A stretch of DNA of 48,410 bases, taken from positions 1-48,410 of the IMG/VR virus record IMGVR_UViG_2531839667_000010; one strand, written 5' to 3'. The notes beneath the pieces are model-generated. The model ran no database searches. It was given only the letters and a program-made list of their open reading frames with translations, and was not told the origin of the DNA. The position numbers and the translations under genes are program-made. Of the stretch, positions 541 through 48,410 are shown in pieces (position 1 is the stretch's first letter; each line of letters opens with the position of its first letter). Source of the DNA: a virus. Lineage: Duplodnaviria; Heunggongvirae; Uroviricota; Caudoviricetes.

Positions 541-1578
541 TTAACGCTTATCCGCCACCAGTTTGAGCGCGTGTTCCAGCACATTAATGTCTGCACCCGC
601 TTTATGGGCATTTTCACTTAAATAACGCCGCCACTGCCGCGCGCCAGGAATACCCTGGAACAAGCCCAGCATATGCCGGGTAATATGGCCGAGATACGTA
701 CCCTGGCTGAGTTCACGCTCAATGTACGGATACATGGCGCGCACTACCGCCACCGGATCAGCATCAGTATCCGAGGAACCAAAAATCTCTCGGTCTACCG
801 CCGCCAGAATCCCCGGATTCTGATACGCTTCGCGCCCGACCATCACGCCATCCATATGTTGCAAATGCGCTTTAGCCTCTTCCAGCGACTTGATGCCACC
901 GTTAATCGACATCGTCAGATGCGGAAAGTCACGCTTCAGTTGATACACACGCGGATAATCGAGAGGCGGGATCTCACGGTTTTCTTTCGGACTTAACCCA
1001 GAAAGCCAGGCTTTACGTGCGTGGATGATGAACATCTCACACTCACCTTTGCCGGAAACGGTGTTGATGAAATCGCAGAGAAATTCATAGCTGTCCTGAT
1101 CATCGATGCCAATACGCGTCTTCACCGTCACCGGAATCGACACCACATCGCGCATCGCTTTCACGCAGTCGGCAACCAGCTGCGCATTACCCATCAGACA
1201 CGCACCAAACATGCCGTTCTGCACCCGGTCAGACGGGCAGCCGACATTCAGGTTGATCTCATCGTATCCACGCGCTTCTGCCAGCTTCGCACACTGTGCC
1301 AGCGCCGCCGGATCACTACCCCCGAGTTGCAACGCTACCGGATGTTCTTCTTCACTGTACGCCAGGTAATCACCTTTACCGTGAATAATCGCCCCTGTGG
1401 TCACCATTTCGGTATACAGCAACGTATTGCGGGAAAGCAGACGCAAGAAATAGCGGCAATGTCTGTCCGTCCAGTCGAGCATAGGAGCAATGCTAAACCG
1501 AGAATTCCAGTAAACACCAGTTTTTTCAGGCATCACGCTGGTTTGATTAATTTTTTGTGTTTCATGATTATCGTGCAT
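541..1578 (-). CDS. dusA: tRNA-dihydrouridine synthase A
   Basis: 345-aa ORF with the Dus/TIM-barrel flavoenzyme pattern ([19 protein letters not shown]); near-identical to my recollection of E. coli DusA except the first ~30 residues. Confidence 0.95.
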
Positions 1579-1666: not shown

Positions 1667-2764
1667 ATGGCGTACTATAACATAGAGAAACGACTAAAAT
1701 CCGATGGCACACCACGCTATCGCTGTAATGTGATTATCAAAGAAAAAGGTGTTATCACTTACAGGGAAAGCAAAACATTCCCTAAACATGCTCATGCCAA
1801 AACATGGGGCACACAGAAAGTGATGGAATTAGATCTATATGGCATTCCATCATCAAATGCAGTTGACGGACTTACAGTCCGTGACTTACTACACAAATAT
1901 TTAAATGACCCAAATGCCGGAGGTAAAGCAGGCCGTACTAAAAGATATGTGCTGGAACTGCTTATGGATAGTGACATCTCCGCGATCAAACTATCTGAAC
2001 TGACAGAAAATGACGTAATTGAACATTGCAGGCTAAGAAACAACGCTGGTGCAGGTCCAGCTACAGTTAGCCACGATGTTAGTTATCTTGGCAGTGTTCT
2101 GGATGCTGCCAAACCTGTATATGGAATTAATTACACATCAAACCCAGCAAAAGCCGCTCGTCCATATCTACTTAAACTTGGTTTAATTGGTAAATCAAAC
2201 CGTCGTAATCGTAGACCAGCATCTGATGAACTGGACATGCTCATTGAAGGCCTTCAACAACGATCTACTCATAAATGCTCAAAAATTCCGTTCGTTGATA
2301 TCCTCAAATTTTCTGTGTGGTCCTGTATGCGAATCGGAGAAGTATGCCGGTTACGATGGGAAGATCTCGACCAGGAACAAAAATCTATACTCGTAAGAGA
2401 CAGGAAAGATCCACGCAAAAAGGAAGGCAACCACATGAAAGTAGCCTTGCTTGGGGAAGCCTGGGATATCGTCCAACGACAGCCCCAAAAATCGGAATTC
2501 ATTTTTCCATATAACAGCACTTCTGTTACTGCGGGATTTCAGAGGGTAAGAAGCAAATTAGGTATTAAGGATCTGCGATACCATGATTTGCGTAGAGAAG
2601 GGGCAAGTCGCTTATTTGAGGCTGGTTTTAGTATTGAGGAAGTAGCCCAGGTTACAGGGCATCGTTCATTAAACGTGCTATGGCAGGTATATACCGAACT
2701 GTATCCAAAATCTTTACATAATCGTTTTGAAGAGCTCCAAAGGAGCAGAAATAAGATCTCTTGA
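1667..2764 (+). CDS. int: Tyrosine-type phage integrase (dusA-associated arrangement)
   Basis: 365 aa; C-terminal catalytic region with LRYHDLRREGASRL (H-x-x-R) and GHRSLNVLWQVYTEL (Tyr nucleophile); divergent from and immediately beside the dusA 5' end. Confidence 0.9.
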   Translation: MAYYNIEKRLKSDGTPRYRCNVIIKEKGVITYRESKTFPKHAHAKTWGTQKVMELDLYGIPSSNAVDGLTVRDLLHKYLNDPNAGGKAGRTKRYVLELLMDSDISAIKLSELTENDVIEHCRLRNNAGAGPATVSHDVSYLGSVLDAAKPVYGINYTSNPAKAARPYLLKLGLIGKSNRRNRRPASDELDMLIEGLQQRSTHKCSKIPFVDILKFSVWSCMRIGEVCRLRWEDLDQEQKSILVRDRKDPRKKEGNHMKVALLGEAWDIVQRQPQKSEFIFPYNSTSVTAGFQRVRSKLGIKDLRYHDLRREGASRLFEAGFSIEEVAQVTGHRSLNVLWQVYTELYPKSLHNRFEELQRSRNKIS

Positions 2765-3123: not shown

Positions 3124-3369
3124 GTTTGTCTCACGAGGCGTAGAAACCTCTCCAAAAGCGGTCCGAACCAACCCCGATAGTGTTGGATTTTTTATGCCTG
3201 TTATTCAGTGATTGCACTGTATGCGGTCACACCCCGATCAATGTCGGGAGGGCGACGAATACAACACCCAGCGATGGGGAATAAGTTCGCGGTATCTTTT
3301 GGGCCGTTTCTAACCTCCCGACACCCACTTATGTGGATTTCCGTAGAAAGAAACCAAAAGAGGTCAGTC

Positions 3370-4262
3370 ATGACTAACCATTCTCCAGTAGAAAGCCTGC
3401 CAGTTGTTACCTATAACAGCCTCCCGGTGATCACCACCGAACTGCTGGCAAAACTCTACAATACCGAACCCAAATACATTCAAACCAACACGGCGCGTAA
3501 TGAATCACGTTTCGTTGCTGGAAAGCACTTCTTTAAACTGGAAGGCACTGAATAAAAGACTTTAAGAACAGACCATCTTCAAGAGGGTTAGTTGGTTCTC
3601 GCGCTCGTAGCCTTGTTCTCTGGACGGAGCGCGGTGCCGCTCGCCACGCCAAAATGCTCGAAACCGATCAGGCGTGGGAAGTGTTCGAAAAGCTGGAAGA
3701 CTTCTATTTTAGCCAGAAGGAAAAGGCCGAGCAGATTCGTAAGAATCGCCAGTGTACAGCTACCCAGCTTATCCCGCTGCGCCAAACGGCAGAACGGTTA
3801 ATCACGACAGGCCTCGGCAAAATCTATCCCGACATATGGAAGCTGGTTCATCAGCGCTTCGATGTTGAGCATATCCACCAGTTGCAGCCTGAGCAGGTCG
3901 GTGAAGCCATCGAGTATCTGAACGTGCTGGAAGGTGAGTACCTGGGGCGCGAGACGCTTCCGGCAACCCCATCAGTGCATTTCACCAACGAGGAGCTTTG
4001 CGCTCTCTGCTGGGTATGGAATGCCGCCGAATACATGCGGGAGAAGATAGAGCTGGCCTATCCCGCAATGAAAACTCTCAAGTCTGAATACGCACCGAGC
4101 TTCTACTCAATGGCATTTGAGTATCAGCGAACACTGGAAGCCGGTAGAAAGGTTCTCGAACGGGAAACAAAACACATCGTTCCGCATCCTCACAGCGTGT
4201 CAGATGAAAACTGGCGGCGAGTCCTGCCTCGTCTGCGCCAAAATAGCTTACCTCGCGGATAA
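3370..4262 (+). pseudogene. ORF6N-domain (antirepressor-type) protein gene with a frameshift near 3550
   Basis: N-terminal frame (ATG 3370, GAGG Shine-Dalgarno) ends FFKLEGTE at TAA 3553-3555; a second frame continues ...SLVLWTERGAARHAKMLETDQAWEVFEKLEDFYF to 4262, matching my recollection of the ORF6N family; consistent with loss of one T at ctgaa-t-aaaag. Confidence 0.55.
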
Positions 4263-4276
4263 TAAGGGACAAAACG

Positions 4277-5599
4277 ATGAGCGAGATTGCACCAACGAGC
4301 CTGTTACACCCTCTGAAAGCTACCGTTCTGGATTTTCAGGAGGATGAGCACGACTATCAGTTCAAGGTTGAATACCCGGAGCCGACCTGCTGCCATGCCT
4401 GCGGTGCAGTGTCTGACATCATCCGCTTTAACAAAAAGCTGGTGAAGTACCGGGATGTTCCCATGCACGGGAAGCGCGTCACGCTCTGGGTCGTAACACG
4501 CCGTTATCAGTGCAAATCATGCAAAGGCACATTCACCCCGGCCATCCCCGAGATGGCCGAAGCCCACCGCATGACAAAGCGCTGCTATCAGTACATCATT
4601 AAACGTGCGCTGACCGGCACTAACGCCAGCGTCGCGCAAGATGTTGGCTTTGATGAGTCCGTCACCCGTGGGGTCATCAAGTCCTACTGCGAGCAAAAGG
4701 CGAAGACCTATAAGCCTGTGCTGCCGCGAGTGCTGGGCATTGATGAGCTGTACCTGAACAAAACCTTCCGCTGTGTCCTGACCAACATCGAGCAGGGAAC
4801 CATTATTGACATACTGGAATCCCGGCAAAGTAACGTCATCTACAACCGTCTGGCGCATATGGAAGGCCGTGAGAACGTGCAGATCGTCTGTCAGGATATG
4901 TGGAAGCCATACCGTGACGTTGCCAGCCAGCTATTCCCTAAAGCCAGCATCGTCGTTGACCGCTTCCATATCCAGCGCATGGCTAACGAGGCGATGGAAA
5001 TGCTGCGTAAGTCGCTCAAAAAGGATCTGACAGTACACCACCGACGGCAGCTTAAAGGCGACCGTAAGATGATGTTGATGCGTAAGCGTGACCTTAACCC
5101 TATGCAGCAGATGATTATCGAAACGTGGCTGGATCACTATCCTGAGTTGGGTCTGGCCTATCAGCTCAAGGAAGAGTTCTTTGATATCTGGCTGGCACAG
5201 ACTGAACCTGAGGCCAGAATGCGCTATCAGAACTGGCTGGCAAAGATACCCGAGCATCATAAAAAGCACTGGAAGCCGCTGATAACATCCATGACGAACT
5301 GGGAGAAAGAGATATTCGCCTACTTCGGCCCGGCCCAGCGGAAGACCAACGCCTTTACGGAATCCATCAACCGCAAGATGCGCGATCTGAACCGTGATTC
5401 GCGCGGAATGTCCTTTGAGATGTTCAGGGCTAAAACACTGTTCACTCTCAAGCATAAGTTCAGCAAGCCTAAACCAGTGAAAGAATCACCGTTCACGGTT
5501 GGCTATGTCACCGCTGGTTCGTGGGATCTGGATGATGAAATCCGGGACGATTACGGCGTATCTATCGACGCTATTCTGGAATCCAAAATCGGCGAATAA
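4277..5599 (+). CDS. ISL3-family transposase
   Basis: 440 aa; N-terminal zinc-finger/HTH pattern (CCHACG ... [10 protein letters not shown]) typical of ISL3 transposases; sits between ISL3-like terminal repeats with an 8-bp duplication. Confidence 0.75.
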
Positions 5600-47147: not shown

Positions 47148-47456
47148 GTGCAGCCGGTTTTGATGGAGAAAATTATGAACACCTTGTTTTTACTGATGGC
47201 TGAATTCAATACCCCTAACATTGAACTCTCAGCAGTTAGCCAAAAGTACTTTGGCATGAGTCCAGCCACGGCAGAAGCAAAAGCAAACGCTTGTAAGTTG
47301 CCCGTTCCAACATATCGCATCGGCACATCACAAAAAGCAAAACGTTGCATCAATATTCAGGATCTTGCGGAATACATAGACAAAAGACGAGAAGAAGGAC
47401 GTATCGAGTGGGAACAGGTCAGAACAGGCAAACAGAAGGGCAAAGAACATCACTAA
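47148..47456 (+). CDS. PrtN/AlpA-like small DNA-binding protein, possible excisionase
   Basis: Likely start at ATG 47175 (GGAG Shine-Dalgarno), about 93 aa; resembles excisionase-like PrtN-family regulators as I recall; last gene of the pL operon. Confidence 0.5.
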   Translation: MQPVLMEKIMNTLFLLMAEFNTPNIELSAVSQKYFGMSPATAEAKANACKLPVPTYRIGTSQKAKRCINIQDLAEYIDKRREEGRIEWEQVRTGKQKGKEHH

Positions 47457-47486
47457 AGAAAAAACCCGCCTAAAGGCGGGTTTTCA
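47457..47486. terminator. Bidirectional rho-independent terminator
   Basis: A-run, stem cccgcc/ggcggg (loop taaa), T-run. Confidence 0.7.
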
Positions 47487-47503
47487 AAAAGCACCAGCTA
47501 TGA

Positions 47504-47677
47504 TCATGCTGCTTTGCGACGACGAAGCTTACCCTGCTGCTCTTTACCAGAGACAGTAGCGTGAGTGAACGCATTAGGAGCAGCCTTCATCAGAACTTCA
47601 ACAGCAGCACCCATACCTGCGAATGCTTTCATTGTGTCGAACTTAACCTGTGGCTTGGTTGCTTTTTGATCTTTCAT
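47504..47677 (-). CDS. Small basic protein (57 aa), not in the ORF track
   Basis: ATG at 47675-47677 preceded by GGGAG; product MKDQKATKPQVKFDTMKAFAGMGAAVEVLMKAAPNAFTHATVSGKEQQGKLRRRKAA; ends at the bidirectional terminator. Confidence 0.35.
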   Translation of the reverse strand: MKDQKATKPQVKFDTMKAFAGMGAAVEVLMKAAPNAFTHATVSGKEQQGKLRRRKAA

Positions 47678-47737
47678 AGAAAACTCCCGAGACAGTAAAG
47701 GCGTCTCTAACCCTCTCTTTAAAGCTAGCTTGTTTCG

Positions 47738-47758
47738 CTAACTTATGCCAATCGATCA
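47738..47758. repeat. Perfect palindrome CCAATCGA-tcatg-TCGATTGG
   Basis: 8-bp inverted repeat with 5-bp spacer in the intergenic region between the two minus-strand genes. Confidence 0.4.
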
Positions 47759-47873
47759 TGTCGATTGGTGACATCGTTTCTTAGTAGTTTAAGCACAAAA
47801 CGACTGCCATAGATGTACCTTTAAGGTAATCTGGACGGGTATCCTACAATTTGTAGACCCTTCTCGTCTATAC

Positions 47874-48410
47874 CTACTGAGCAAATTTAAGAAAGATATC
47901 CTGCAGCTCATCAATGACTGCAGACATCACATAACCGCACTGTTCCATGCGGAAACCAAAAGACTCGTAATACTGCACCAGTTCTGGTACTGGCTCTACA
48001 ATGTGGACAACTTTACATTCAACAGCTTTACAAAATATAAAAGCACTCATAAGAGTGAGTAAAACCATGCGCCCTTTCAATGGGTGAGATTCATCTTCTC
48101 TAGAAAACCTTTCGATCATATGGATACGAAAGATGTTTTCTTCAACCCCATAAACACAAATTGCTGCTCCTGATGGTATTCCCTGAACCCGACCTTGCTG
48201 AACAAGTTTTATGCAGAACTCATACTTTTCTCTGGAGTTGCCATAGGTGCTTAACGCATAGTCCCATTCAAGCTCACCATAGCCACCACACAGAATCTTG
48301 TAATCATCATCACTGAGCGGACCAACAGCAAGAGGTAAGCCGACATGATCAATAATCAACTGGATATTGTTACGTACAGATTGACCTATCTCGTCTAGGG
48401 TAAGCATCAT
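47874..48410 (-). CDS. Hypothetical protein, possibly GNAT-like acyltransferase fold
   Basis: 178 aa; C-terminal ...PLKGRMVLLTL...VVHIVEPVPELVQYYESFGF loosely resembles GNAT motifs; start coincides with the window edge. Confidence 0.4.
   Translation of the reverse strand: MMLTLDEIGQSVRNNIQLIIDHVGLPLAVGPLSDDDYKILCGGYGELEWDYALSTYGNSREKYEFCIKLVQQGRVQGIPSGAAICVYGVEENIFRIHMIERFSREDESHPLKGRMVLLTLMSAFIFCKAVECKVVHIVEPVPELVQYYESFGFRMEQCGYVMSAVIDELQDIFLKFAQ

Follow-up and report, generated by a model that had tools for sequence, protein, structure and literature searches.

A GNAT-fold protein and its small basic partner as a putative mobile accessory cassette at the attR end of a dusA-integrated prophage

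What is encoded in the last kilobase of a 48,410-nucleotide stretch of Caudoviricetes DNA (IMG/VR record IMGVR_UViG_2531839667_000010, positions 1 to 48,410; hereafter, the window), and do the two minus-strand genes found there (47457–48410) belong together? The larger gene, encoding a predicted GNAT-fold protein, comes first and the gene for p57, a basic protein of 57 amino acids (aa), comes second, i.e., in the non-classical order already remarked upon in the original prediction, which was made from the sequence alone. The comparative evidence suggests that this region constitutes an entire mobile accessory cassette of a phage (“moron”), apparently arranged as its own upstream region, the GNAT-fold gene, an internal promoter, an RNA leader, the p57 gene, and its own terminator. 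The moron features encountered here include promoter-like boxes, the terminator, at least eight insertion contexts, variable presence, and a deviant guanine–cytosine (GC) content (43% vs. 51% in the window). As to its function, the cassette is tentatively read, with slightly less than an even chance of this being right, as a GNAT effector accompanied by an antidote or regulator and serving phage exclusion or prophage retention.

The coupling of the two genes is the central observation. A p57 homologue was found by tblastn 80–200 nt 3′ of the GNAT gene in 121 of the 121 loci from which both genes could be extracted, and the same GNAT-then-p57 order recurred in separately fetched loci of Edwardsiella, Serratia, Brenneria, Salmonella, Enterobacter hormaechei, and Morganella. 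The linkage spans about ten genera and at least eight prophage positions, and adjacency is kept down to ~41–47% identity; the pairwise identities of the GNAT protein and p57 co-vary (Spearman 0.93 over 28 distinct pairs, a descriptive value only). Since the linkage holds at all loci despite the many genera and insertion contexts involved, the two genes are considered a functional unit. The dependence is one-sided: the GNAT gene was never seen without p57 among the loci examined, but p57 lacks its GNAT partner in Shewanella baltica and in ~200 of 5426 complete E. coli genomes. The full unit is present in 358 of the 5426 complete E. coli genomes, O157:H7 included, and on hundreds of Salmonella and Enterobacter hormaechei contigs.

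The pair resides in diverse surroundings. In E. coli and Salmonella, it lies between xis and attR of dusA phages; in Morganella, it adjoins the integrase; in Pseudescherichia, it is found at the edge of the prophage close to a cI-like gene; and in Brenneria, it comes immediately after a cI-like repressor gene on the same strand. Serratia, Edwardsiella, and Enterobacter carry it between the antiterminator Q gene (or the nin region) and the lysis genes, Photorhabdus within the tail/baseplate operon of a myovirus, Shewanella frigidimarina at a prophage edge, and Edwardsiella tarda between gpA and the portal gene gpQ of a P2-like phage. The gpA–gpQ locus of P2, home of old/tin, is a known defence hotspot (PMC9122126). 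Accordingly, the cassette occupies a recognised defence hotspot, a post-cI slot, and a slot allelic with a PanA toxin–antitoxin (TA) cassette. The possibility that p57 is a mere component of the xis-side phage backbone was rejected, as the pair moves jointly into xis-free tail operons, P2 hotspots, and Q–lysis slots. In the O157:H7 strain TW14359 (locus L188), the dusA prophage is decayed, showing internal stops and truncation of the exonuclease and DUF2303 genes, yet both cassette genes remain intact and encode proteins identical to those of other lineages. In a Serratia liquefaciens prophage, a gene of the Acb2/Tad1-hairpin family (anti-CBASS/Thoeris sponge-like; L183, 7488–7769) is located just past the lysis genes, ~1.6 kb downstream of the GNAT–p57 pair.

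The window itself is an E. coli prophage of the mEp460-like type integrated in the 5′ end of the host dusA gene. This follows from its left end, where dusA (541–1578, minus strand; pspG lies further left) is succeeded by the integrase gene (1667–2764, plus strand); integration in the dusA 5′ end has been described for the dusA-specific integrase family (PMC4482086). The 1-kb region of the cassette is 99% identical to phage mEp460 and was found in 564 of the 5426 complete E. coli genomes. The virion genome of mEp460 shows the order xis, two minus-strand genes, phage-borne dusA 5′ end (attP), and int, while a lysogen 100% identical to the window over 47400–48410 carries attR and the displaced host dusA remnant ~150 bp past the window end. 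Since the pair stands between xis and attP/int in the virion genome, the unit is phage DNA, attR-proximal and convergent with xis, and not a part of the host core genome. Hence, the attachment-site-proximal position and the accessory nature surmised in the original prediction were both borne out, and the extension of the window it had proposed placed the unit inside the phage, with host dusA sequence beyond.

The open reading frame (ORF) of 178 aa predicted at 47874–48410 on the minus strand is present, with its TAG stop at 47876–47874. The start is likely at 48407 (47874–48407, 177 aa), since the family alignment begins at the second methionine, from which public records also annotate the protein, labelled “hypothetical protein”. 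The product is acidic (isoelectric point, pI, 4.8) and belongs to the function-unknown PHROGs family phrog_4350. No Pfam or NCBIfam family matched it at E ≤ 1, and a profile search revealed no sequence relative in the PDB. Its homologues are restricted to Enterobacterales, Shewanella, and Plesiomonas: an exhaustive profile search of 1.84 billion representatives returned just 99 proteins of the family, and a Pfam scan of 74 distant relatives gave one marginal Acetyltransf_1 match and otherwise none. The family is, therefore, a small orphan branch of GNATs.

The assignment to GNATs comes from the predicted structure. An AlphaFold2 model based on 40 sequences (predicted local distance difference test score, pLDDT, 89.9; predicted template-modelling score 0.88) displays the GNAT order of elements, β1-α1-α2-β2-β3-β4-α3-β5-α4-β6. 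A Foldseek comparison of the model with the PDB gave 291 matches at E ≤ 1e-3; the best matches listed are all GNATs, e.g., Gcn5, SpeG, AtaT, TacT3, and KacT, and aminoglycoside and polyamine GNAT enzymes are also among the structural matches. The viral structure library BFVD yielded generic GNATs only. Of the two ways of verification put forward with the original prediction, structure modelling with fold search thus supported the GNAT fold and sequence models did not; on the strength of the former, the predicted fold is regarded as established.

Invariant residues of the family cluster in β4 (I96, H97, E100), α4 (Y148, G152-F153), and the β4–α3 loop, where H109-P110-L111-x-G113-(R/K)-M115 occupies the motif A site. 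These are the places where GNATs bind CoA and carry out catalysis. In comparison with the canonical motif A (Q/R-x-x-G-x-G/A), the sequence retains the central glycine, deviates at the first and last positions, and has a loop longer by ~7 residues. Residues E100, H97, and Y148 sit at the usual catalytic positions of GNATs, which suggests a catalytic role for them. Both the enzymatic activity and the substrate are, however, proposed from the model, and catalysis is treated as putative because of the non-canonical pyrophosphate-loop motif. The N-terminal acetyltransferases NatD/Naa40, Ard1/Naa10, and RimI show 9–14% identity to the cassette enzyme, which differs from them in the long β4–α3 loop with its invariant HPLxG(R/K)M, an extra N-terminal helix, its location in phages, and its tie to a small partner.

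The small gene (47504–47677, minus strand) encodes, as predicted, a lysine- and arginine-rich protein (9 K, 3 R; pI 10.5), although it is not unannotated as had been thought: it is deposited as mEp460 gp24 and WP_000654815.1, each labelled “hypothetical protein”. Comparison with eight orthologues of other genera revealed changes concentrated at codon position 3 (e.g., 1/2/13 and 1/2/15 for the three positions) and synonymous changes well above the non-synonymous ones; only the annotated frame stays open in all orthologues. On account of this third-position bias, synonymous excess, and open frame, p57 is considered a real protein-coding gene under purifying selection. Its conserved core reads FDTxxAFxxMGAAVExLxKAAPxAF...QGKxRxRKAA. 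Modelled alone with AlphaFold2 (pLDDT 62), p57 is predicted to form a single helix (15–32), the remainder being disordered. Searches of Pfam, NCBIfam, PADLOC, and the PDB gave no match for it; in PHROGs, it belongs to the function-unknown family phrog_2741.

The 196-nt spacer between the two genes of the window accommodates a structured leader of p57 (47678–47835, minus strand; ~160 nt in Enterobacteriaceae). The leader comprises, on the same strand, the hairpins H1 (47811–47832), H2 (47769–47809), H3 (47748–47768), H4 (47722–47744), and H5 (47689–47707), followed by the Shine–Dalgarno sequence GGGAG (47684–47688). Single-sequence folding of the spacers from nine Enterobacteriaceae lineages returned the same five hairpins. 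On the sense strand of the window, the minimum free energy is −49.2 kcal/mol (z −4.25, 0 of 200 shuffles), vs. a z of only −2.27 on the antisense strand. From a plain MAFFT alignment, RNAalifold recovered H1, H3, and H4, including six pairs with compensatory changes. Six close sequences served to build a covariance model, which gave full-length matches in 21 of the 21 long-spacer Enterobacteriaceae loci and no match in the Panacea allele (see below) or in more distant genera. It was scored on the resulting alignment of 17 sequences; this alignment is fitted to the model, so its pairing is somewhat inflated. The leader is paired in 88.6% of the alignment cells, vs. 29–43% in controls with the partners slid by 1–3 columns; two-sided changes affect 17 pairs and 95 cells, vs. 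4–8 pairs and 4–20 cells in the slid controls, and the covariation score is 0.357 vs. at most 0.094.

Hairpin H3 coincides with the perfect palindrome CCAATCGA-N5-TCGATTGG, which is found once in the window. The original prediction had noticed this palindrome, albeit ten bases off (at 47738–47758), and had interpreted it as an operator. By itself, it is no more than mildly unusual, as ~0.1 perfect 8-bp inverted repeats with a 3–8 nt spacer are expected per 196 nt at the rate observed in the window. It is counted as real because it is conserved in other genera. In the covariance alignment, its helix is 97.8% paired; one C-G pair turns into U·G in 8 and another in 5 of the 17 sequences, A-U turns into G·U in 7, and compensatory changes (C-G to U-A, G-C to A-U) occur as well. 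The loop measures 3, 5, or 7 nt among the loci. The G·U wobbles, the compensatory changes, and the variable loop argue for an RNA stem on the coding strand rather than a symmetric DNA site. The operator reading was consequently rejected, as the spacing of the arms varies and, in 5–8 of the 17 sequences, they turn asymmetric as DNA but remain G·U-compatible.

No Rfam family covers the leader or the spacer, the sub-threshold matches all falling on the terminator hairpin. A long-range AGAC/GUCU pairing suggested by RNAalifold was discarded, since its 5′ arm corresponds to an invariant −35-like box, which precedes the probable start of the transcript. Candidate roles of the leader are stabilisation of the mRNA, its processing, or feedback exerted by the basic p57. 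An ORF of 43 aa (47643–47774, minus strand) overlaps hairpins H3–H5 and the start of p57; it was treated as probably spurious, as the underlying sequence shows indels and hairpin covariation among the orthologous loci.

Each of the two genes is preceded by promoter-like sequences. In all contexts, a −10-like box is situated ~30 nt before the GNAT start codon; it reads TATAAT in the present case, where it falls just outside the window, and TACAAT or TAGAAT in others, and a terminator belonging to the adjacent gene often comes before it. A conserved box, ACATCTTTTACAAC, was also observed ~32 nt upstream of this element and ~80 nt upstream of the GNAT gene (L065-type upstream regions, L010, L088, L014, L090, and L099); being too distant for a single sigma-70 promoter, it may represent a second promoter or a regulator site. 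Directly past the GNAT stop, the −35-like box TAGACG (47865–47870, minus strand) is invariant in 14 aligned intergenic regions. The −10-like box TAGGAT (47841–47846, minus strand) follows after 18 nt, with T-A-x-G-A-T invariant (TAGGAT/TACGAT) and the sequence between the boxes variable. Comparable boxes occur in the same place in Xenorhabdus, Serratia, and Brenneria, in the P2-like Edwardsiella phage (TAGATA-N16-TAGAAT), and in Shewanella (TATAAT). This consensus-level comparative evidence suggests that TAGACG-N18-TAGGAT is an internal promoter for p57; the conserved boxes were revealed by comparative alignment and were not flagged by a generic promoter scan.

At the other end of the cassette, a Rho-independent terminator hairpin was predicted by a terminator scan at 47460–47485, and at the equivalent position in locus L003. 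It possesses a strong T-run on the minus strand, and its A-tract/T-tract layout suits the plus strand too; it is also situated at the end of the convergent xis transcript. The hairpin and its bidirectional layout had been recognised in the original prediction, where they were attributed to the early (pL) operon. This attribution was not upheld: a CCCGCC-loop-GGCGGG hairpin with a T-run lies 3′ of p57 in Pseudescherichia, Franconibacter, Enterobacter, Serratia, and Xenorhabdus, in front of different downstream genes. Since it travels with the cassette into unrelated contexts, the terminator belongs to the cassette.

The slot between xis and attR also accommodates other cargo. In ~200 E. coli genomes, it holds a Panacea-domain (SocA-like) antitoxin gene, an overlapping gene for a 139-aa protein of unknown family, and then p57, which begins 39 nt past the 139-aa gene (3318–4306 in loci L004 and L005). 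Homology of this allele with the window ends at ~47688–47690, the foot of hairpin H5. The Panacea (PanA) TA cassettes (PMC8832971) are thus similar to the GNAT cassette in using the same slot in sister prophages and in being followed by p57; the proteins are unrelated, and neither the promoter nor the leader of p57 is present in the PanA allele. A comparable exchange was encountered in Shewanella. In S. baltica (L201, 1610–4174), a TacA–TacT GNAT pair, a gene for a 269-aa protein, a HEPN-like gene, and a p57 homologue are located at the prophage end, convergent with the early operon. In a sister Shewanella species (L021), GNAT and p57 reside in the slot held by the 269-aa and HEPN-like genes in S. 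baltica.

What could such a cassette do? In the favoured reading, the acidic GNAT enzyme would be the effector, acylating an α-amino or lysine group on a translation-related target or on a phage or host protein; this target is proposed because the nearest structural neighbours are N-terminal acetyltransferases and the tRNA-acetylating TacT/AtaT toxins. The basic, disordered p57 would bind the enzyme and neutralise or gate it, being made in excess from its own promoter, with the hairpin leader setting p57 translation or mRNA stability. In the lysogen, the pair would operate as a module of the toxin–antidote type, excluding other phages and/or ensuring retention of the prophage, and a p57 that outlasts replacement of the GNAT gene would represent an orphan antidote.

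Several lines of evidence favour this reading. The one-way dependence is expected of an effector and its antidote, the GNAT gene never being found without p57 and p57 sometimes occurring without GNAT. The separate putative promoter of p57 is in line with toxin-first TA modules with extra antidote expression. Such modules with an additional antitoxin promoter include higBA, mqsRA, and hicAB, in which the effector gene likewise comes first and the neutraliser gene follows under a promoter of its own, making an excess of the second product possible. The proteins are unrelated to those of the cassette, however, and the antitoxins of higBA, mqsRA, and hicAB are DNA-binding autoregulators, whereas p57 shows no DNA-binding domain; no structured RNA leader of this sort is known for these modules. 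Further support comes from the predicted disorder of p57 alone and the complementary pI values of the two proteins (4.8 vs. 10.5), from the acetylation of α-amino groups of proteins or of aminoacyl-tRNA by the GNAT neighbours, from the slots holding defence or TA genes and being allelic with the Panacea cassette, and from the retention of the pair in the decayed O157:H7 prophage.

At the same time, a number of findings pull the other way. That p57 persists downstream of unrelated cassettes may just as well reflect a role independent of the cargo. The pyrophosphate loop has HPLxG[RK]M in place of Q/RxxGxG/A, and the structural match of the enzyme to toxin GNATs is no better than that to many housekeeping GNATs. 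For its part, p57 displays neither a DNA-binding domain nor likeness to known antitoxins in Pfam and PDB profile searches, and within Enterobacteriaceae it is more conserved than the GNAT protein, the reverse of the usual antitoxin pattern. Neither protein has a match in PADLOC-DB 2.0 at E ≤ 1, and literature searches by accession and topic turned up no description of them.

The alternative that survives best, unlikely as it is judged to be, is that of an enzyme–substrate pair, in which the GNAT enzyme would acetylate the N-terminus or a conserved lysine of p57 and the modified p57 would be the active product, e.g., a small effector binding the ribosome, RNA polymerase, or the nucleoid; in a type-VII-like variant, acetylation would turn p57 off. 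The likeness of the enzyme to N-terminal acetyltransferases is in agreement with this idea. Still, p57 is kept intact without the enzyme behind the Panacea and HEPN-like cassettes, and a separate p57 promoter would be superfluous in a simple enzyme–substrate operon.

Decidedly less probable is a role in anti-defence or host takeover, where the GNAT enzyme would acetylate and inactivate an immune or metabolic protein of the host to the phage's advantage, with p57 as a cofactor or specificity subunit. There is a precedent in AcrVA5, which acetylates and inactivates Cas12a, and the GNAT fold, the several copies in lytically expressed slots (Q–lysis, tail operon), and the Serratia copy near an Acb2/Tad1-like anti-CBASS gene would suit such a role. 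Other copies, however, are situated where lysogenic expression is expected (after cI, in the P2 old/tin locus, and at prophage ends with their own promoters), and the pair has been retained in the non-inducible O157 prophage. The slots of lysogenic expression, together with this retention, speak for a benefit to the lysogen.

More doubtful yet is the view of the two genes as independent neighbours, with the GNAT protein as a lysogenic-conversion enzyme detoxifying small molecules, antibiotics, or microcins and p57 as a separate moron sharing the terminator. GNAT enzymes commonly act on small molecules, and p57 comes with promoter-like boxes, a leader, and a terminator of its own and occurs without GNAT; nevertheless, 100% adjacency down to ~41–47% identity at eight or more unrelated sites is hard to explain without functional coupling. 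Finally, a classical type II pair of a GNAT toxin and a ribbon–helix–helix (RHH) antitoxin (TacA–TacT, AtaR–AtaT, KacA–KacT, ItaR–ItaT), with the palindrome as its operator, is highly improbable: a ~175-aa GNAT-fold enzyme on mobile DNA with a small adjacent partner and a perfect palindrome between the genes, TacT3, AtaT, and KacT among the best structural matches, and an occurrence asymmetry fitting toxin and antidote do recall this family, but the enzyme is outside the Acetyltransf sequence families of Pfam, p57 is a predicted disordered basic 57-mer with no match to DUF1778/RHH, the gene order is reversed, the spacer of 196 nt is long and structured and contains a putative internal promoter, the palindrome behaves as an RNA hairpin, and the true TacA–TacT pair of S. 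baltica looks quite different. The unit lacks every testable defining feature of the classical GNAT/RHH family. Of the GNAT toxin with a small partner envisaged in the original prediction, the linked unit is thus retained, with the effector–antidote relation as the best guess, and the classical GNAT/RHH type is not.

Phage morons that combine a GNAT enzyme with a small partner are of a familiar kind; the architecture seen here is unfamiliar. As with known morons and hotspot cargo (rexAB of lambda downstream of cI, old/tin of P2 in the gpA–gpQ interval; PMC9122126), the cassette looks like a self-contained unit of promoter, gene(s), and terminator with a lower GC content and variable presence among related phages, and it uses the same slots; its gene content is nonetheless new, not being represented in PADLOC 2.0, and the cassette was not found in the hotspot papers searched for acetyltransferase/GNAT. 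That it constitutes a new two-component toxin or defence module outside the GNAT/RHH type, featuring an enzyme checked by, or acetylating, p57, a hitherto undescribed five-hairpin leader governing p57 synthesis, and persistence of p57 as an orphan antidote (anti-addiction element) once rival cassettes (Panacea, HEPN) have displaced the enzyme from the slot, is a real possibility, although on balance a doubtful one.

Common as it is, the pair is missing from Pfam, NCBIfam, PADLOC, and Rfam as well as from the literature searched. Because it recurs in exclusion and TA slots, it is a concrete, inexpensively testable candidate for a new acetyltransferase-based system of prophage defence or addiction. 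Should the proposed enzyme–partner relation be true, the repertoire of GNAT toxins would extend past the type with RHH antitoxins, a new cis-regulatory RNA would be added, and the end of a prophage would furnish a concrete case of cargo exchange in which the antidote gene stays in place. Should the GNAT protein merely be a conversion enzyme beside an unrelated small gene, the interest would be modest.

Some minor observations concern the neighbourhood of the cassette. The convergent xis gene (47148/47175–47456, plus strand) is of the PrtN/pyocin-activator type (PF11112); public records place its start at an internal ATG (93 aa), in contrast to the 102-aa ORF starting with GTG. In a Salmonella variant (L193, 4381–4848), an extra gene encoding a helix–turn–helix and two transmembrane segments is inserted between p57 and xis. 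The prophage supplies a replacement dusA 5′ end beside the dusA-specific integrase gene (locus L001, 6136–6258), and the displaced host dusA 5′ remnant is found beyond the window end (L003, 4155–4460). In the latter locus, a promoter-like sequence, TTAACA-17-GATTAT (4460–4432, minus strand), is directed into the GNAT gene with no predicted terminator in between, which is why the old dusA promoter may co-drive the cassette in the lysogen.

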